Positions 9,943 through 25,759 of a stretch of DNA of 64,000 bases are shown here, in pieces. The stretch's first letter is position 1. Each line of letters opens with the position of its first letter. This stretch comes from Chthoniobacterales bacterium. Its GTDB lineage: Bacteria; Verrucomicrobiota; Verrucomicrobiia; Chthoniobacterales; DASVRZ01. Under the pieces are notes generated by a model. The model did not search any database and had not been told where the DNA came from. It worked only from the letters and a program-made list of their open reading frames with translations. The position numbers and the translations under genes were made by a program. The stretch spans positions 114,570 to 178,569 of the forward strand of contig JBDSQB010000012.1 in assembly GCA_039930045.1 (NCBI GenBank), written 5' to 3'.

Positions 9943-10048
9943 AAAAAAAGACCAGAGAGCTACGGCAAAGAGAAGCTGGCTACCGTTGCTGCCTTCCGGC
10001 CCTGGCGGGGTTTGCCGGTTCGCAGTCCATAGTCCCTGGCAGCGGCAA
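9943..10048 (-). ncRNA. ffs: Putative signal recognition particle RNA (small 4.5S type)
   Basis: The minus strand reads ...CGCCAGGGCCGGAAGGCAGCAACGG... (plus-strand coordinates 9983-10005). This matches the universally conserved SRP domain IV core CAGG-NCC-GGAA-GGN-AGCA, with a compensatory G-C pair where E. coli has U-A. Flanking segments can pair (CGGCAAA/UUUGCCG, CCAGGG/CUCUGG), and the RNA ends in a U8 tract (9943-9950). End coordinates are approximate. Confidence 0.55.
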
Positions 10049-17651: not shown

Positions 17652-18281
17652 TTAGGCAGCGAGACTGGCACCGGTCGTGTCGTTCAACACTTCGCGGAGA
17701 GCGCCGGAGAGTTTGCGAACGGCCAAGTCGAGCCGGGTCTTGATCGTGCCGAGCGGGATTTGCATCTTCTGGGCGATCTCGCGCTGGCTCATGCCTTGCA
17801 GGTAAGCCCATTCCACAGCCTTGCGCTGGGCTTCGGGCAACTTGGACATGAGGTTCGAGAGTAAACGCTGCATCTCGGCGGATTCGATATCGGCCTCGAT
17901 ACGAGTATGCGTCCAAGAGGCGGGTTGCTTTTCCATGTCGTTTTCGAGGCGATCCTCGGCGCGTTGACGGCACTGGAACTTGCGAAGGCGATCAATCGCG
18001 CGGCGGCGGGCGATGGTCATCAACCAGCCTATGACTTTCCCTTTGGCCTCAGAGTAGCGGTCAGCTGACGTCCAGAGATCGACGAAAATTTCCTGAACGA
18101 CGTCCTCGGCGATGAATTCATCGTGCAGCACGCGGGCCACCTGGGTTTTCAGCATGGAAGCGTAGCGGCGGTGCATTTCCTCAAAGGCACCGGTGTCTTG
18201 GTCAACCACAGAGCGCATGAGTTGTTCGTCGGACATTTCGTTAAAGGCGACGGGAGAGATGGAATCGAATGTGTAGAGCAT
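17652..18281 (-). CDS. ECF-type RNA polymerase sigma-70 family factor
   Basis: Region 2 (EDVVQEIFVDLWTSADRY...WLMTIARRRAIDRLR) and a region 4 HTH (MSQREIAQKMQIPLGTIKTRL) are present. The start is at 18281 or 18314. No anti-sigma gene is adjacent. Confidence 0.85.
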   Translation of the reverse strand: MLYTFDSISPVAFNEMSDEQLMRSVVDQDTGAFEEMHRRYASMLKTQVARVLHDEFIAEDVVQEIFVDLWTSADRYSEAKGKVIGWLMTIARRRAIDRLRKFQCRQRAEDRLENDMEKQPASWTHTRIEADIESAEMQRLLSNLMSKLPEAQRKAVEWAYLQGMSQREIAQKMQIPLGTIKTRLDLAVRKLSGALREVLNDTTGASLAA

Positions 18282-18543
18282 ATTGGTTGTCTGTAAGTGG
18301 TTTAAGCGGGACAAGTTCTCTTTAGCAGTCGAGGTGCCATGGGCGTTTACGGGGCAGAAGCGTCAAAAGCGGCGCTTTTTGTGTATTGCAAACGTGTCCA
18401 TGTGTAGCGCATGAATACAATCGGACTCCACCCTGAGGGCCTCATATCCCGACACTCTGGGCCTCCCCGTGCCTGCGAGAGCCATTCACATTGACCTTCC
18501 CCGGTCCAGCCGCGATAGTGCGCTCCCTTTTTTCGCTCTCACA

Positions 18544-20349
18544 ATGTCCACCGCCAACACCCGTAATTTCTGCATCATTGCCCATATCGACCACGGCAAA
18601 ACCACCCTCTCCGACCGCCTCTTGGAGCACACCGGCACCATCCAGGTCCGCGAGCAGCAGGACCAAATGCTCGACGCCATGGACCTCGAACGCGAGCGCG
18701 GCATCACCATCAAGTCGCATCCCGTCACGATGCAATACAAGGCGAAGTCCGGCGAAATCTACAAACTCAACCTCATGGACACGCCCGGGCACGTCGACTT
18801 CGCCTACGAAGTCTCCCGCTCCCTCGCCGCCTGCGAAGGCGCCCTCCTCATCGTGGACGCCGCCCAAGGCGTCGAAGCCCAGACCGTCGCCAACGTCCAC
18901 CTCGCGATGAAACAGGGCCTCACCCTCATCCCCGTCATCAACAAGATCGACCTCCCGAACGCCGACCTCCCCACCGTCAAAAAGCAACTCGAAGAAATCC
19001 TCGCCATCCCCGGCGAAGAAGCCATCCCCGCCAGCGCCAAAGCCGGCATCGGCATCGACGACATTCTCGAGGCCGTCATCGCCCGCATCCCCCCGCCCGT
19101 CGATACCCCCAACGAAAAACTCCGCGCCCTCGTCTTCGACTCCACCTTCGACACCTACCGCGGCGTCGTCGTTTACGTCCGCGTCGTCGATGGCTCCATC
19201 TCCGCTGGTGACAACATCAAAACGATGGCCACCAACAAAAGCTACGACGTCAAAGAAGTCGGCATCTTCCGCCCCAGCAACCCCAAAATGTCCGTCCAGC
19301 CGCGCCTCGGCCCAGGCGACGTCGGCTACGTCATCGCCAACGTCAAAGACCCCGCCGAAATCAAAGTCGGCGACACCCTCACCAACGGACGCCTCCCCTC
19401 CCTCATCCCCCTGCCCGGCTTCCAGATCGTCCACCCCATGGTCTTCTCCGGCATCTACCCCATCAACACCGCCGACTTCGAAGCCCTCAAAATCGCCATG
19501 GGCAAACTCCAACTCAACGACTCCGCCTTCAACTTCATGCCCGAAAGCTCCGTCGCGCTCGGATTCGGCTTCCGCTGCGGCTTCCTCGGCCTCCTCCACA
19601 TGGAAATCATCCAGGAACGCCTCCGCCGCGAGTACGACATGGACATCATCGCCACCTACCCCAGCGTCATCTACGAAGTCCTCCGCACCAACGGCGAAGT
19701 CCTCCTCGTCGACAACCCCGAGCACCTCCCGGATTTCAGCGTCATCGAAGAAATCCGCGAACCCATCGTGCAGGCCTTCATCATGGTCCCCAACGAATAC
19801 ATCTCGCCGTTAATGCAGCTCATCCTCGAAAAACGCGGCGTCCTCGAACACACCGAAAGCCTCGATACAAGGCGCGTCATGTTAACCTGCTCCCTGCCCC
19901 TCAACGAAATCGTCGTCGACTTCAACGACAAAATAAAATCCATCACCCGCGGCTACGGCAGCATGGACTACGAACACGCCGGCTACCGCGCCGACAAACT
20001 CGTCAAACTCGACATGCTAGTGAATGGCGAGCCCATCGACGCCTTCAGCAGCATCGTCCACCGCGAAAAAGCCGAATCCCGCGGCCGCCAGCTCGCCGCC
20101 AAACTCAAAGAAGTCATCCCCACGCAACTCTACCAAGTCAGCATCCAGGCCACCATCGGCGGCAAAATCGTCGCCCGCGAAAACGTCAGCGCCATGCGCA
20201 AAAACGTCATCGCCAAATGCTATGGCGGCGACATCACCCGCAAACGCAAACTGTTAGAAAAACAAAAAGAAGGCAAAAAGCGGATGAAGAGCTTCGGCAC
20301 CGTCAACATCCCCCAAGAAGCCTTCATCGAAGTCCTGAAGTCGAACTAA
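18544..20349 (+). CDS. lepA: Translation elongation factor 4
   Basis: The ATG at 18544 gives MSTANTRNFCIIAHIDHGKTTLSDRLL. The GTPase motifs and the LepA C-terminal domain (KCYGGDITRKRKLLEKQKEGKKRMK) are present. Confidence 0.95.
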   Translation: MSTANTRNFCIIAHIDHGKTTLSDRLLEHTGTIQVREQQDQMLDAMDLERERGITIKSHPVTMQYKAKSGEIYKLNLMDTPGHVDFAYEVSRSLAACEGALLIVDAAQGVEAQTVANVHLAMKQGLTLIPVINKIDLPNADLPTVKKQLEEILAIPGEEAIPASAKAGIGIDDILEAVIARIPPPVDTPNEKLRALVFDSTFDTYRGVVVYVRVVDGSISAGDNIKTMATNKSYDVKEVGIFRPSNPKMSVQPRLGPGDVGYVIANVKDPAEIKVGDTLTNGRLPSLIPLPGFQIVHPMVFSGIYPINTADFEALKIAMGKLQLNDSAFNFMPESSVALGFGFRCGFLGLLHMEIIQERLRREYDMDIIATYPSVIYEVLRTNGEVLLVDNPEHLPDFSVIEEIREPIVQAFIMVPNEYISPLMQLILEKRGVLEHTESLDTRRVMLTCSLPLNEIVVDFNDKIKSITRGYGSMDYEHAGYRADKLVKLDMLVNGEPIDAFSSIVHREKAESRGRQLAAKLKEVIPTQLYQVSIQATIGGKIVARENVSAMRKNVIAKCYGGDITRKRKLLEKQKEGKKRMKSFGTVNIPQEAFIEVLKSN

Positions 20350-20852: not shown

Positions 20853-20863
20853 TTGACTCCCTC

Positions 20864-20922
20864 GTTCCCAAACTCCGTTTGGGCACGCACTTGTCCCGGC
20901 AACTGCGTTGCCTCCCCATTCG
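20864..20922 (+). repeat. REP-like double-hairpin element, copy A
   Basis: Sequence GTTCCCAAACTCCGTTTGGGCACGCACTTGTCCCGGCAACTGCGTTGCCTCCCCATTCG. It carries hairpin 1 (CCCAAAC/GTTTGGG) and hairpin 2 (GGCAAC/GTTGCC). It is near-identical to copy B at 21687-21745. Confidence 0.75.
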
Positions 20923-20934
20923 ACTCTAACTCCC

Positions 20935-21675
20935 ATGAAAATCCTCCCTCTCATCGGCGCAGCGCTCCTCCTCGGGCTCAGCGGCTCCCTACGGGCCGTC
21001 GATTTCAGTTCCACAACCTTCAACGGCAAACGCATCACCGTCTGCCAGGTCGATCTCCGAAAGGGAAACCTCCGACTCTTCCTGCGCGACGAAACAGGCG
21101 CGACCTTCAAGCGATTCGACAAGCTGGCGTCTTGGCTCGCAGCCCGTGGCGAAAAGCTCATCTTCGCCATGAACGGCGGGATGTATCATGGCAACTTCGC
21201 CCCCGTCGGACTCTTCATCTCCGAAGGCAAAACCCTCGAGGCACTCAACCTCTCGGACGCCCCAGGGAACTTTTTCCTCAAGCCCAATGGCGTCTTCCTC
21301 ATTTCCAAGAGCGGCGCGAAAATCGTCGAATCCTCCGAGTTCCCGGCCAACGGCAAAGGCGTCCTGCTCGCCACCCAATCCGGTCCCCTCCTCGTCCAAC
21401 ACGGCAGACTCCACTCCGCCTTCCAGTCCGGCTCGACCTCGTGCCTCTTCCGCAATGGCGTCGGCATCGTCAATGCCAACACCGTCGTCTTCGCCATCAG
21501 CGAGGAACCCATCAACTTCGACGAATTCGCCCGAGGCTTCCGCGATACATTGCACTGTCAGGACGCCCTTTTTCTCGACGGCACCATCTCCAGCCTCTAC
21601 TCCCCAGAACTTAAACGCAGTGATTTCCGCATGGACCTCGGCCCCATCCTCGGCATCACCGAACCATCGCGTTAA
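20935..21675 (+). CDS. Phosphodiester glycosidase family protein (DUF2233-like), secreted
   Basis: The ATG at 20935 gives the signal peptide MKILPLIGAALLLGLSGSLRA. The blocks FAMNGGMY, NFFLKPNGVF, QSGPLLV, RNGVGI and ALFLDGGTISS-like fit the family as I recall it. Confidence 0.72.
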   Translation: MKILPLIGAALLLGLSGSLRAVDFSSTTFNGKRITVCQVDLRKGNLRLFLRDETGATFKRFDKLASWLAARGEKLIFAMNGGMYHGNFAPVGLFISEGKTLEALNLSDAPGNFFLKPNGVFLISKSGAKIVESSEFPANGKGVLLATQSGPLLVQHGRLHSAFQSGSTSCLFRNGVGIVNANTVVFAISEEPINFDEFARGFRDTLHCQDALFLDGTISSLYSPELKRSDFRMDLGPILGITEPSR

Positions 21676-21686
21676 AATACCCCTCT

Positions 21687-21745
21687 TTCCCAAACTCCAG
21701 TTTGGGAACGCCCTTGTCCCGGCAACTCCGTTGCCTCCCCATTCG
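21687..21745 (+). repeat. REP-like double-hairpin element, copy B
   Basis: Sequence TTTCCCAAACTCCAGTTTGGGAACGCCCTTGTCCCGGCAACTCCGTTGCCTCCCCATTCG. It has the perfect palindrome TCCCAAACT/AGTTTGGGA plus GGCAAC/GTTGCC, in the same orientation as copy A. Confidence 0.75.
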
Positions 21746-21794
21746 CGCATCCATCAGATGGAAACGGAGTCCGAATTGCTTATAAGCTGAACGC

Positions 21795-22012
21795 GGAACG
21801 TCTTTTGGCGGGTCGGGAACGTCTTTTTCCATCTTAGGAACGTCTCCCGGCGGGGAGGGAACGTCCCGGTGGACCTGCGGAACGTCTTTCGGCCCCTCGG
21901 GAACGTCCCGGCGCGCTGCCGGAACGTTGTTCGGCCCACTGGGAACGTCCGCGATGGGCCAGGGAATGTCTCCCGCCACTGATGGAACGTCTTTTTTTGT
22001 ATTCGGAACGTC
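21795..22012 (+). repeat. Array of 11 direct GGAACGTC boxes at an exact 21-bp periodicity (iteron-like or phased protein-binding array)
   Basis: Boxes start at 21795, 21816, 21837, 21858, 21879, 21900, 21921, 21942, 21963, 21984 and 22005. Nine are GGAACGTC, one is GGAACGTT and one is GGAATGTC. The 13-bp spacers are not conserved. The array is intergenic, ending 96 bp upstream of the ATG at 22108. Confidence 0.9.
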
Positions 22013-22107
22013 TTTTTACTCCCAAAAATACATTCCCTCGGCTACAAGCCCTCATCCACACGCACAGTAGACAGATAACCATCTAACTCGGATCAGAAAA
22101 AAAACTC

Positions 22108-23055
22108 ATGGAATACTATCAAGCCTATCAGACTCGCGCCACGCAGACGGTCGCCGTCATCAATCAATACATTTCCACGCTCACCGTCGGTGGGTTTACC
22201 GTCACCGACCTGTCGAACCAATCCACCGCCCTCGATGCGCTGGCCCAGACTCGCGACAACGCCCTCGCCGATTACGACCTGGCCAACAATGCGGAAAATC
22301 AGGGCTTCCTGCTCATCTCCGGGCTTACCCTTTCGCTGCCGCAGTCGGCTGAGGGCGAACTCAGCGACAACATCGAAGCCGAGTCCCCGCTTCTCGATCT
22401 GCTCTCCTCGGCCTACGCCATCAAACCGCGCACCACGGCTCTCGCCCTCGACCGCGGCAAGAAAGTCGTCGCCGCCCTCACCAAGATCAACGCCTACCTC
22501 GCCGCTCTTCCAACCCCACGCGCTCCCATCACCAGCGGAGGCAAAGGCATGGCCGACCTCAGCGCCGCCATGACGGCTCAACCCCAGCTCGAACAAATCG
22601 TGGAAGACCGCGCCGCCGACGTCACTGAAGCCCGTTCCACCCTGCGCAACGCCGCCGTCGCCGTGGACCGTCTGAATAAACGCTTTTACAGCAAGCTCCA
22701 GAGCGAAGCGCGCTCCAATCCAGCCCTCGCCGACGCCCTCGGGCAGATCGTTACCGAAGGCTCGAACCTGCCCGGCACCCTCGGCATCCGCTCCCTCCTG
22801 CAAGGCGGCACGGATAATTTGCACATCCTCCTTTCCTACGAAAACGCATCCTACGATGGCACCGCCACGAGCACCGTGGAATGGCAGATCGTCGGCACGG
22901 ATCAGGATTTCGCCCACAGCGTGGCCGCTGATCCGAGTGGCAATGCCCTGGGGCCATTCGTCGCCGGCCAGACGGTGAAACTGCGCACTCGCGTCTCCAA
23001 CGCCAACGGCACCACGACCGGCAGCGTGCGGACGTTGACCCTCGTCGCGGCGTGA
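22108..23055 (+). CDS. Hypothetical protein: helical N-terminal region plus a C-terminal beta-sandwich (FN3/Ig-like) domain
   Basis: 315 aa with strong coding-type C3 codon bias and no signal peptide or TM helix. The C-terminal ~90 aa (VEWQIVGTDQDF...GQTVKLRTRVSNANGTTTGSVRTLTL) looks FN3-like. I recognise no family. Confidence 0.7.
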   Translation: MEYYQAYQTRATQTVAVINQYISTLTVGGFTVTDLSNQSTALDALAQTRDNALADYDLANNAENQGFLLISGLTLSLPQSAEGELSDNIEAESPLLDLLSSAYAIKPRTTALALDRGKKVVAALTKINAYLAALPTPRAPITSGGKGMADLSAAMTAQPQLEQIVEDRAADVTEARSTLRNAAVAVDRLNKRFYSKLQSEARSNPALADALGQIVTEGSNLPGTLGIRSLLQGGTDNLHILLSYENASYDGTATSTVEWQIVGTDQDFAHSVAADPSGNALGPFVAGQTVKLRTRVSNANGTTTGSVRTLTLVAA

Positions 23056-23116
23056 CCCGTTGCGCGCACCACAGCCGAGCTATCCCGGGACCAGCGCAGA
23101 TGAGGCTGTTTTTTCC

Positions 23117-24583
23117 ATGAACGAAACTTCCTCAGCTTTCACCGGCATCCCGCTTTCCCGGCTGGGGGTGGAGGCGTCGCCATCGGGAGTCGGCCCCCGC
23201 CGTGTCGTCTCGCCGGTGGAATGGGTGGTGGCCGGGATTATTTTACTCGTTACGCTTTTCCTCATTTTCCCGGAGGTGCGGGGGATGGCGACGATGTCGC
23301 TCTACAATGATGAGATTTACACGGTGCAGAAGTTTAGCTCCAAAGGGCCGCGACAGGTGCTGACGGATTATCGCGCTCCGAATAATCACATGTTCTATAA
23401 CTTGGTGAACTCGGTTACGCGCGGGTCTCGCTCCTGTCTGCCGGGGCGGGCGCGGCTATTTTCGTTCCTGTCGGTGGCTGCCATGGTGGTTTTGGTGGGC
23501 CGTTATTTTGTGCAGCAGGGTCGTCCGGTACTGGGGGCGCTGCTGCTCTTCTGGCTTTTTGCCAATCTGACCTATCTGGATGTGATCCTGCAGGCGCGCG
23601 GCTACGGTTTCCTGGCGCTGGGGGCGTCGCTTTGCTGCATGGGCACGCTCCGTTATTTCCAGCGGCAGGCCACGCGCGACATTGTGTTGGTGGCAACGGC
23701 GGTCTGGCTGGCGACGTGGAGTGTGCCGTCGTTTATTTTCTTTGGCGGGCCGCTTCTGCTGCTGGTGACGGGGGTGAGCCGCGACAAACGCTGGCTGTTC
23801 GCCGGAATGATCTGTCTGGTGCTGATCGTGTGTTCGTATTGGGCGGTGCATGTGCAGCTTTTGCACAATGCCGACAATTATGGCGATGAATGGGGCGAGG
23901 CGTTTAAGAGTTGGGAAGGGCTCCACTCTTTTCTGAACAAGTATCTGCTCTTCGGCTGGTTCTGGCACTATTCGTGGGTGACGTTTCTGCTCTTCGCCGC
24001 GTTGATCGCTGGGGCTCAGGCATTGCGGCGGTCCGAAGGAACGGATCTCGCCTCGCTGCTGATCGGGGCCGCTGTGCTGGTGACGTTTCTGATTTGCCTC
24101 AAACTCCGCACGCCGAGTCTGAAGTCGATGTCGTTTATCGTGGTGCCGCTCGCGTTTGTGGCGATGCAGATTCTCCACCGGCTGGTATATCGGGAGGAGG
24201 CCGTGCTGGGGCCGCTGATCGCCCATGGCGCCATGGTGATCGGGGTGATCGCGCTGAGTTGGACGATCTGGAGAGGCTTTACCTACGTGCCGATCGAGAA
24301 CTGGCTGGGCACGGCGCGGAAGATCCAGTCGGAGTTTCCCAAGCAGACGGGCGTTTTGGCTCCGTTCCGTCCTGAACACCTTCGGGCTTATCTGAAGTCG
24401 TCCGATTATCCGAAGGTGACGACATTTAACCGCGAGTCCTTTCTGCGCGGAGAATTGGTGGTGGTGGATTCCTCATTTCGCGACCGCGATAATTGGGATG
24501 TAAAGGTGCTGCCGAAAGGCTTCCGGACATTCGTAATTCCGCAGCAGCGTGGCGGTTACCAACGGATCTACTATTACAGATAA
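23117..24583 (+). CDS. Polytopic membrane protein, possible GT-C fold glycosyltransferase (ArnT/PMT-like)
   Basis: About 488 aa with roughly 10-12 hydrophobic helices. The first extracytoplasmic loop carries an acidic LYNDEIYTV motif, reminiscent of the DE/DxD loop of GT-C enzymes. An alternative TTG start is at 23060. Confidence 0.55.
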   Translation: MNETSSAFTGIPLSRLGVEASPSGVGPRRVVSPVEWVVAGIILLVTLFLIFPEVRGMATMSLYNDEIYTVQKFSSKGPRQVLTDYRAPNNHMFYNLVNSVTRGSRSCLPGRARLFSFLSVAAMVVLVGRYFVQQGRPVLGALLLFWLFANLTYLDVILQARGYGFLALGASLCCMGTLRYFQRQATRDIVLVATAVWLATWSVPSFIFFGGPLLLLVTGVSRDKRWLFAGMICLVLIVCSYWAVHVQLLHNADNYGDEWGEAFKSWEGLHSFLNKYLLFGWFWHYSWVTFLLFAALIAGAQALRRSEGTDLASLLIGAAVLVTFLICLKLRTPSLKSMSFIVVPLAFVAMQILHRLVYREEAVLGPLIAHGAMVIGVIALSWTIWRGFTYVPIENWLGTARKIQSEFPKQTGVLAPFRPEHLRAYLKSSDYPKVTTFNRESFLRGELVVVDSSFRDRDNWDVKVLPKGFRTFVIPQQRGGYQRIYYYR

Positions 24584-24637: not shown

Positions 24638-25759
24638 ATGCTACGCGCCTCCATGTTCTTCGCTCCCAAATACGTCAAGCAGGCTCACGAAATCGTTAAA
24701 AACGTCACCCGCCTGCTCCATTACAAGCGCGACATTCTTTCCCCGGCGGATCATGCGCGGCTGACGGCCAAAAACCGGGAGTTGCAAGCGGCGGCGCGGG
24801 CACGGGATCGCGCGAAAGTGGACCAGATCACGATGGAACTCGACTCGGAAATCGGCAAAGTCGTCCCGACCCCCTCGAACCAGGCGATCCGGGAGAATTG
24901 CGAGACGTTTCTCGTGGCCATCGTCATCGCGCTGGGCATCCGGGCGTATTTTCTCCAGCCCTTTAAGATTCCCACCGGCTCCATGCAGCCCACACTCAAC
25001 GGCGTCATCGGCAAACCGCTCGCCGGCCCGCTCCCCGCCCTGCCGCAACGCATCTGGGAAACCGTCTGGAACGGGCGGAGTTACGTCGATGTCACGTCGG
25101 ATCTCGACGACACGGTGGTGCAACTCCAGTCGGTGCCGTTTCTCTGGTTTTCCACGTCGAGTGTGATCGTGATGGAGAGCGGGCGGACGTATAAAGTGGG
25201 GTGTCCGCCGCAAAACTTGATCACAGATTTTGGCATTCACGCCGGCAAAGAGGTAAAGGCGGGCCAGCCGTTCGTCCACGGCGTCGTCCAGACCGGCGAC
25301 CAGGTTTTCGTGGATAAATTCACCTATCATTTCCGCGCGCCGAAACGGGCCGATGTCTTCGTTTTCACCACGGATGGCATCCGGGGAATCATGGATGACC
25401 CGCGCAGCGGCGGGTTGACGCAGTTTTACATCAAGCGCCTCGGGGCGCAGCCGGGCGACAACGTGAGGATCGACGCGCCAAATCTTTTCATCAACGGCCA
25501 GATCGCCAGCGAGTGGCCGTTGCAACGCGTGATGTCGGCGCAGAATGGCTATCGCGGTTACGGAAACATCGGGCCGCTTTTGCTGCGTCATGCGGATGAG
25601 ACGTTCGATGTGCCGCCGCGCAGCTATCTCGCCCTCGGCGACAATAGCTACAATTCGAGTGACAGTCGATTCTGGGGCCCGGTGCCGGAGCAAAACGTGG
25701 TGGGCCGTGGGCTGTTTGTGTATTGGCCGTTTGGCCAGCACTTCGGGCTGATTCGGTAG
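24638..25759 (+). CDS. lepB: Signal peptidase I
   Basis: 373 aa with the catalytic Ser box IPTGSMQPTL, the Lys box region and box E (LGDNSYNSSDSRFWGPVPEQNVVGR). Confidence 0.9.
   Translation: MLRASMFFAPKYVKQAHEIVKNVTRLLHYKRDILSPADHARLTAKNRELQAAARARDRAKVDQITMELDSEIGKVVPTPSNQAIRENCETFLVAIVIALGIRAYFLQPFKIPTGSMQPTLNGVIGKPLAGPLPALPQRIWETVWNGRSYVDVTSDLDDTVVQLQSVPFLWFSTSSVIVMESGRTYKVGCPPQNLITDFGIHAGKEVKAGQPFVHGVVQTGDQVFVDKFTYHFRAPKRADVFVFTTDGIRGIMDDPRSGGLTQFYIKRLGAQPGDNVRIDAPNLFINGQIASEWPLQRVMSAQNGYRGYGNIGPLLLRHADETFDVPPRSYLALGDNSYNSSDSRFWGPVPEQNVVGRGLFVYWPFGQHFGLIR

Follow-up and report, generated by a model that had tools for sequence, protein, structure and literature searches.

Eleven copies of an 8-bp box, repeated at an exact 21-bp step in a stretch of DNA from a Chthoniobacterales bacterium (hereafter the window, meaning all 64,000 nucleotides analysed), form one half of a two-part module whose other half is the gene of 315 amino acids (aa) that follows them. 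The array (21795–22025, forward strand), composed of 11 units in which the 8-bp box is followed by a 13-bp spacer, is inherited together with this gene across relatives, keeps a fixed register to the gene start and is under selection for box and phase. We read it, with a probability of roughly 0.6, as a lattice of putative protein-binding sites set along one face of duplex DNA and abutting a weak sigma-70-type promoter; as such it is probably a docking lattice for a DNA-binding factor that controls the 315-aa gene. An initial annotation of the window had called the array an orphan, which it is not, being the companion of the 315-aa gene family in many genomic contexts.

The array and its gene

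Direct reading and exact search agree that the 11 boxes occupy 21795–22012 with a step of 21 bp throughout. Nine of them read GGAACGTC (starting at 21795, 21816, 21837, 21858, 21879, 21900, 21942, 21984 and 22005) and the two variants are GGAACGTT at 21921 and GGAATGTC at 21963, exactly as first described. Only 2 exact boxes lie outside the array on both strands of the 64-kb window, and in 100 shuffles the count was 3.08 per window and never rose above 7. Tracts of T4–T7 stand 3′ of boxes 1, 2, 10 and 11, and the inner units have GC-rich spacers and no T-tracts; these features of the initial annotation hold, as do the sequence ACATTCC at 22030–22036 and the lepA and lepB flanks. Tandem Repeats Finder reported a 42-bp super-period at 21857–21950 (83% matches). 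From the last box to the ATG at 22108 there are 95 nt, and the window array is 100% identical between two independent assemblies of the same organism.

Evidence for co-inheritance comes from loci of relatives, all of which are metagenomic sequences or metagenome-assembled genomes (MAGs) and are cited here by L numbers. When loci were fetched for homologues of the 315-aa protein at 85, 80, 77 and 71% identity, every one carried, on the coding strand, an array of 11–12 units at 21 bp in the region from about −350 to −100 relative to the ATG. The contexts of these modules differ: L123 has the lepA–lepB surroundings with DUF3800, DUF4926 and DUF456 genes, L125 lies near gcpE, and L127 and L129 are placed beside DNA methylase genes. 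A metagenome scan added 49 loci, most of them with a 21/42-bp array upstream as judged by autocorrelation and 21-bp wrapping, and the curated set comprises 31 arrays of 8–15 units each (369 units). In the loci examined the array is always oriented sense to the gene. Arrays also accompany distant homologues, with twelve CTGCACGkC units in L181 (31% protein identity) and TCGGGAACG...GAAGTCA units in L183 (27%); the periodicity is weaker in L182 (25%), and in L135 and L169 the array register shifts by 1 nt. Comparing all flanking open reading frames (ORFs) with one another revealed neither a recurrent gene other than the 315-aa family beside the arrays nor a conserved neighbouring regulator gene, and since no other flanking gene recurs, the module consists of array and gene only. 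The gene pair proposed initially is accordingly not a conserved unit, as only in the lineage of the window is the 315-aa gene followed by that of the 507-aa membrane protein.

The 315-aa gene (22108–23055, forward strand) encodes an internally duplicated helical bundle (residues 1–215) followed by a C-terminal FN3-like domain (227–311), and its AlphaFold2 model has a predicted local distance difference test score of 92.8. The protein as a whole is acidic (isoelectric point, pI, 4.9) and its middle domain basic (pI 10); it has no signal peptide-like hydrophobic segment and no match in Pfam, NCBIfam, PHROG or PADLOC. Foldseek matched the whole protein to FN3 only and revealed no recognisable DNA-binding fold; for the helical part it returned nothing significant, the best PDB matches (flagellin core, McpS sensor domain and AhlB/C) having E values of ~0.1, and a PDB sequence search gave nothing beyond the FN3 domain. 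The most strongly conserved motif is a basic patch, DR(L/N)NKR(F/W)Y, carried on a 53-residue helix in the pI 10 middle domain. All 207 homologues are unannotated, and the few named ones belong to Verrucomicrobia MAGs (Luteolibacter, Pedosphaera); the family amounts to 281 clusters at 50% identity, and the source names of ten homologue clusters read ‘hypothetical protein’ only. Gene family and array module together appear to be specific to Verrucomicrobia.

A genome-wide search for GGAAYGTY-N13, repeated three times, had been proposed as a way of seeing whether other arrays exist and which genes they precede. Run over 185,579 species genomes, the search returned at least 120 loci; almost without exception these are common tandem repeats with a 21-bp period, found in phyla that are not related and with spacers that hardly differ from one another. 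None of the loci listed carries the 315-aa gene and the true relatives of the array are not among them; because the matches listed are mostly unrelated tandem repeats, the box alone is not diagnostic. Termite-gut MAGs (L010, L019, L042, L066, L083 and L088) have 21-bp tandem repeats, many of them at the ends of contigs, whose core is the palindrome GGAACGTTCC. These repeats occur in differing phyla (Planctomycetaceae, Dysgonamonadaceae, Spirochaetaceae), several with matches on both strands (L010, L019, L042, L066, L083), and are unrelated to the array studied here.

Selection on box and phase

The arrays of the window, L123 and L125 are collinear, with 11 units each and 0 indels across 231 bp in relatives at 80–85% protein identity. 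Pairwise identity among the three is 0.93–0.95 in the boxes and 0.67–0.71 in the spacers, the latter being equal to the identity at four-fold degenerate sites of the adjacent gene (0.70). The 31 arrays give 338 box-to-box intervals, of which 336 measure exactly 21 bp, and the 2 exceptions form a compensating pair of 20 and 22 bp. Box and phase are thus under selection and the spacers drift neutrally, which bears out the original argument for selection on the lattice rather than a recent minisatellite; an alignment of relatives had been suggested as the check. The companion statement that spacers share no sequence is too strong, since a 42-bp super-period is present and positions 9 and 13–15 are weakly informative. 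Within arrays, positions 1–9 hold 1.2–1.7 bits, positions 13–15 about 1 bit (often TG) and the remainder 0.5–0.8 bits; judged from these two information peaks, the unit is bipartite and would reach into two consecutive major grooves on the same side of the helix. The 42-bp super-period recurs in many arrays, in which two unit types alternate, and in 28 of the 31 the sense strand is richer in T than in A.

Box sequence is lineage-specific and box type largely tracks the protein tree, most boxes sharing a common core close to A-Y-G-N-C. The box GGAACGTC is that of the window, L123, L125 and L131; related forms are GGAACGkC (L127, L132) and GGAAAyGkC (L129). Further types are GTAAACGTC (L138, L140, L152), GTAAATGAC (L141, L164), TGrAyGTC (L159), TGGAyGsCC (L143, L154), TmATCGTCTG (L148), AGATrCCT (L165) and the CTGCACGkC of L181.

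One Luteolibacter MAG (GCA_039915545.1) has two paralogues of the 315-aa gene, L179 and L180, whose proteins are 70% identical. Their pre-array motif is the same (GGAAAACTGATACACCGAACG) and their boxes differ, GyAAACGTC in L179 vs GGACCyTGCTCC in L180. The first unit of L180 still reads GGAATGGC, which suggests that a variant unit was amplified inside that array.

The edges of the module are conserved as well. On the left it begins with the motif GCTTATAAGCTGAACGC (21778–21794, forward strand), which includes the 10-bp palindrome GCTTATAAGC and is the sole upstream stretch common to the window, L123 and L125, homology ending ~20 nt before box 1; arrays of other lineages are preceded by related motifs, AAAACTGATAyryCsrAACGC. 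On the right, the tail of the last unit, TTTTTACTCCCAA (22013–22025, forward strand), includes a T-tract and a putative weak −35-like hexamer, TCCCAA, at 22020–22025, and is invariant in the same three arrays. At 22024–22036 (forward strand) lies the conserved motif AAAAATACATTCC, which contains the ACATTCC that the initial annotation took for a partial inverted box. L123 and L125 share the form AAAAA(G/T)ACATTC, and so do L141 and L175, where the box is GTAAATGAC; because it is kept in lineages with that box too, the motif is probably a separate element rather than an inverted box.

Palindromes resembling repetitive extragenic palindromic (REP) sequences or miniature inverted-repeat transposable elements fill the intergenic space around modules. 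They are dense upstream of the arrays in L138, L145, L146, L148, L152, L158 and L175, and lie between array and gene in L131 and L175, examples being GGTAGGGCGCGTCACTCCGTGCGCGCCG...GGTCAGGGGACTGACCGCCCTACC and TAGCCCACGGCTAAAGCCGTGGGCTA.

Promoter-like elements and the distance to the gene start

All promoters described here are consensus calls. In the window, a putative −10-like hexamer, TACAAG (22043–22048, forward strand), would place the transcription start near 22055 with a leader of ~50 nt, and the last box at about −50 to −43. Relatives have hexamers at the homologous position, ending 58–70 nt before the ATG: TATAAA in L123, TACAAA in L125, TACCAT in L165 and GATAGA or GATATA in L127, L132 and L133, with CATACG also seen elsewhere. 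After the last T-tract of the array comes the −35-like hexamer, which has a weak form in the window (TCCCAA) and reads TTGCTA, TTGCCA or TTGCAT in other lineages; the two hexamers are 17–18 nt apart. This arrangement, with the array ending ~80 nt before the ATG, is one of two architectures. In a second clade the array ends 190–565 nt upstream, and a strong TTGCnn-17-GATAAA promoter ends 19–22 nt before the ATG.

Across both architectures the distance to the gene is quantised in steps of 21 bp. From box core to ATG it equals 12–14 modulo 21 in 22 of 30 loci, over gaps of 78–565 bp (P ~5e-13), and in 16 of 24 when each distinct gap length is counted once (P ~7e-9); core positions were assigned by eye, with a possible register bias of ~1 nt that the 3-residue window covers. 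Register 14 is the starting point of the −10 hexamer in 8 loci that include both architectures. Since the register varies by 1 nt, this is not a reading-frame effect; it could reflect either selection for phase or decayed array units. Some array-to-ATG gaps hold REP-like hairpins.

A further conserved pattern was seen in L138, L141, L145, L148, L152, L164 and L175, in which a pair of (C/T)ATTAG motifs ~22 bp apart encloses AAAAA(G/T)ACnTTC. This pair occupies the stretch from about −125 to −85 relative to the ATG, 3′ of the array and 5′ of the strong TTGCnn-17-GATAAA promoter, and may be a second operator. Part of this region, AAAAATACATTCC, is present in the window at 22024–22036.

Possible function of the array

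In the reading that we favour, the array would be the cis-acting half of the module, and its 11 boxes would be sequence-specific sites for an oligomerising protein that binds them cooperatively. The step of two helical turns puts all boxes on one face of the helix, and the same two-turn period, together with the bipartite unit, head-to-tail orientation, 42-bp pairing, fixed-length neutral spacers and promoter register, points to a lattice on duplex DNA. The protein could bind head-to-tail, or wrap the DNA or form a filament along it, possibly as dimers on 42-bp pairs of units. With the last box directly upstream of a weak −35, the occupied lattice would control the 315-aa gene in a switch-like manner, and most likely activate it, activation being the likelier sign in the window because the −35 is poor there.

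Several observations weigh against this reading. No binding protein was identified, the sole regulator among the genes scanned within ~10 kb being an extracytoplasmic function (ECF) sigma factor. The box differs between the two paralogues of one MAG, which a single trans-acting factor can hardly explain; this argues against a single global factor and leaves two options, namely paralogous dedicated factors or the product of the gene itself. A promoter-like element (CTTTTTAGCCAC, 17 nt, GAnAAT) is present in one clade ~45 nt upstream of the array, which may therefore be transcribed there; in the same clade 140–500 bp separate the array from the gene-proximal promoter, a long way for a simple activator. 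The promoter of the window is called by consensus, with a poor −35, and a few homologue loci (L144, L147/L156, L170–L173) have no array in the sequence at hand.

The main rival to a DNA lattice is an RNA reading, in which the array would be part of a transcript, either a long leader or an RNA of its own. Its GGAACGUC-type motifs would then be occupied by an RNA-binding protein, in numerous copies or as a ring, in the manner of TRAP on the 11 triplets of the trp leader, and mRNA stability, termination or translation would be controlled in this way. The constant sense orientation would fit such an RNA, as would the conserved −10-like motif just before unit 1 (CTGATAnnnC; TTATAAG in the window), the fuller promoter-like element ~45 nt upstream in one clade and the tolerance of REP-like hairpins between array and gene in L131 and L175. 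We nevertheless consider it unlikely, as a 21-nt step kept in 336 of 338 intervals and a register to −10 and ATG held within 1 nt fit the helical repeat of duplex DNA and are unexpected for RNA–protein arrays. Moreover, the sense strand folds no better than its shuffles (z = −0.57; antisense z = −1.87), the RNAalifold covariation term over five arrays is −0.04 kcal/mol, and no Rfam match was found at the gathering threshold or at E ≤ 1. Because only ~17 nt are conserved upstream of the array in the window's clade, no −35 region is preserved there from which it could be transcribed. Doubtful, too, is the proposal that the 315-aa protein reads and polymerises on its own array, for autoregulation or as a chromosomal nucleoprotein anchor. 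Protein and box would then co-evolve separately in each paralogue, like a partition protein and its centromere, and box divergence would prevent cross-talk, as it does in the partition and incompatibility systems of plasmids. The gene is indeed the only constant partner of the array, boxes differ between the paralogues L179 and L180, the foremost conserved motif of the protein is a basic patch on a long helix of the pI 10 domain, and the best conserved part of the box is the common core A-Y-G-N-C. These points have to be set against the acidic character of the whole protein, the lack of a recognisable DNA-binding fold and the absence of a hypervariable reading patch in a family whose boxes differ widely.

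A further explanation does without a dedicated sequence-specific reader. Phased T-tract curvature, or an extended UP-like region acting on RNA polymerase, would account for the T-tracts that follow first and last boxes in many lineages in 21-bp phase and for the excess of T on the sense strand in 28 of 31 arrays; it is quite improbable, given that curvature needs no GC-containing box of 8–9 bp kept at 93–95% identity amid drifting spacers, that inner units are without T-tracts, and that information is high in the box and low in the spacer. Even less probable is that the repeats are iterons, or form the partition centromere, of a replicon or integrated element, a reading that the initial annotation had entertained. 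Iteron-rep and parC-parMR layouts do have direct repeats at about two helical turns upstream of an adjoining gene, and their boxes, like these, are copy-specific. However, neither the 315-aa gene nor its neighbours contain a Rep, ParA, ParM or ParR domain, the surroundings are chromosomal housekeeping genes, one genome can hold several copies, and relatives of the 315-aa gene were found in none of 72,556 plasmid records and in no viral contigs. Nor does the locus have origin features: DnaA-box near-matches number 7 vs 5.4 expected, without a cluster, and there is no AT-rich region (minimum GC 0.44). That the array is a neutral minisatellite or a translated heptad-repeat ORF we regard as having next to no chance. 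It is true that 21 bp equal 7 codons, that gene callers sometimes place minus-strand ORFs across arrays and that GGAAYGTY occurs by chance in many 21-bp tandem repeats with no relation to the array. A neutral repeat is contradicted by 11 units stable in relatives at 80–85% protein identity, by an array identical in two samples and by boxes kept while spacers evolve at the neutral rate. As to translation, any one frame is open in 21 of the 31 arrays at most, amino-acid identity is about equal in six frames (0.63–0.68, three collinear arrays) and spacer substitutions are distributed 46/50/38 over the three codon phases; the six-frame and codon-phase tests thus dispose of the heptad ORF that had been named as a possible refutation.

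Specific candidates were considered and rejected. The minus-strand ‘DVP’ heptad ORF at 21656–21979 was set aside on the coding tests of the arrays. An ECF-sigma promoter, with GGAAC as −35 and CGTC as −10, would have a spacing of 20 nt between adjacent boxes, ECF-sigma promoters being spaced at 16–17 nt, and the boxes of other lineages are unrelated to it. A CsrA-type GGA sponge was dismissed, as GGA is not conserved over lineages, and so was a sigma-54 enhancer, no TGGCAC-N5-TTGC match being visible in the displayed upstream sequences (by eye, with no formal scan). For a replication origin, the cumulative GC skew that had been suggested as a check for ori or ter shows no clean switch, DnaA boxes are at chance level and several copies per genome are possible.

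Relation to known repeat systems

On the defining features tested, the array belongs neither with iterons, ParR centromeres and RemA sites nor with minisatellites. Closest in geometry are the LytTR operators (AgrA, ComE, PlnC/D, BtsR), in which direct repeats of ~9 bp, 12–13 bp apart and thus with a 21-bp period, lie just upstream of the −35, in two, rarely three, copies per promoter. A single LytTR domain touches two consecutive major grooves (PMC8481266), and the 8–9-bp box, 12–13-bp spacer and bipartite unit (positions 1–9 and 13–15) described here would fit such a contact. The likeness to LytTR sites noted at the outset therefore stands for box and spacing and fails for repeat number, with 11 units here and 8–15 in relatives; boxes also differ between paralogues of one genome, and the genes scanned within ~10 kb of the array include no LytTR gene. 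We treat the geometry as only a lead.

RemA, which acts at eps and tapA of B. subtilis, forms an octameric ring of LytTR-like units, for which wrapping of periodic upstream repeats and activation have been proposed (PMC8481266); its sites are at least six poorly conserved AT-rich 7-bp repeats with 3-bp gaps and a period of ~10 bp (PMC8481266). Both systems have many periodic direct repeats upstream of a sigma-A-type promoter (far upstream in RemA). Unlike RemA sites, the boxes here are well conserved and contain G and C, are set at a strict 21 bp in 8–15 units and belong to one gene family; no RemA-like ORF was found in the 64-kb window with an approximate RemA sequence as query. BldC forms a cooperative head-to-tail oligomer, as a filament, on a variable number of direct repeats (PMC5859096), which are contiguous 9-bp AATTnnnnC sequences in 2–4 copies serving a pleiotropic regulon (PMC5859096). 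A variable number of same-orientation direct repeats is common to both, whereas the units of the present array are 21 bp long and its target is specific to one family.

In plasmid iterons (P1 oriR/incA, R6K, pSC101) and in ParR-parC, copy-specific repeats lie beside the gene of their reader with a promoter embedded or abutting, and iterons are conserved over 17–19 of ~22 bp. Direct repeats phased at about two helical turns, exactly 21 bp here, are the shared trait; the array differs in having no Rep or Par protein, origin features or plasmid or phage context, and in that only 8–9 of its 21 bp are conserved. Domains of a ParR/ParG-type operon (ParM/ParA NTPase with a ribbon-helix-helix adaptor) were absent from the flanking genes. 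The half-sites of AraC/XylS regulators (araI1-I2) are asymmetric, spaced 21 bp centre to centre, composed of two submotifs one turn apart and adjoining the −35, two per promoter. They resemble the 21-bp asymmetric bipartite units near the −35 of the window and differ from them in number (two half-sites vs 8–15 units), and no AraC-family gene is linked to the array.

By analogy, the array may work like known phased direct-repeat operators. It differs from these in the presence of 8–15 units, the deep and near one-to-one linkage to a single protein family, the lineage- and paralogue-specific boxes and the gene distance quantised at 21 bp. To our knowledge, arrays of 8–15 strictly phased sites are rare in bacterial promoters; no relevant literature was found on this box or on 21-bp repeats in Verrucomicrobia, nor any description of an array linked to one protein family down to 25–31% identity while its box drifts. 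The module constitutes a natural experiment on the evolution of a protein–DNA lattice and its spacing, and the 231-bp array offers a bait for finding a regulator and a handle on the function of an abundant, uncharacterised protein family of soil and freshwater Verrucomicrobia. If the product of the gene were to read its own array, the fold by which it binds DNA would be new, as would this kind of chromosomal protein–site pair, and the module would be a chromosomal iteron-like autoregulatory or anchoring system, apparently specific to Verrucomicrobia.

Genomic surroundings

The array sits between a NAGPA (phosphodiester-glycosidase) gene at 20908–21675 and the 315-aa gene, within an interval that runs from lepA (18469–20349) to lepB (24638–25759) among cell-envelope housekeeping genes; a Mur ligase and glycosyltransferases are further chromosomal housekeeping neighbours. 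A 65-bp direct repeat, ~90% identical, flanks the NAGPA gene on both sides (20859–20922 and 21681–21745). It is made of two short hairpins, CCCAAACTCC(A)GTTTGGG and GGCAACTnCGTTGCC, and is found nowhere else in the window. In the close relative L123 the NAGPA gene is missing from the equivalent place, so that it may have been inserted recently or may be flanked by REP-like elements.

The 507-aa protein encoded downstream of the 315-aa gene (23060–24583, forward strand) has ~9 hydrophobic segments and no match in Pfam, NCBIfam, PHROG or PADLOC. The ECF sigma factor gene (17652–18314, reverse strand) is divergent from lepA and lies 3.5 kb upstream of the array; it is kept at the same place in L123 and L124, and another ECF sigma gene occurs 1.3 kb downstream of the gene in L180. 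Because such genomes usually hold numerous ECF sigma genes, its proximity to the array is likely due to chance. In L183 (1962–3509), the distant homologue with 27% identity and its own 21-bp array lie directly upstream of cas1 and cas2, an adjacency that is probably coincidental. The window also encodes a bacterial small signal recognition particle RNA (RF00169, 55 bits) at 9947–10041 on the reverse strand.

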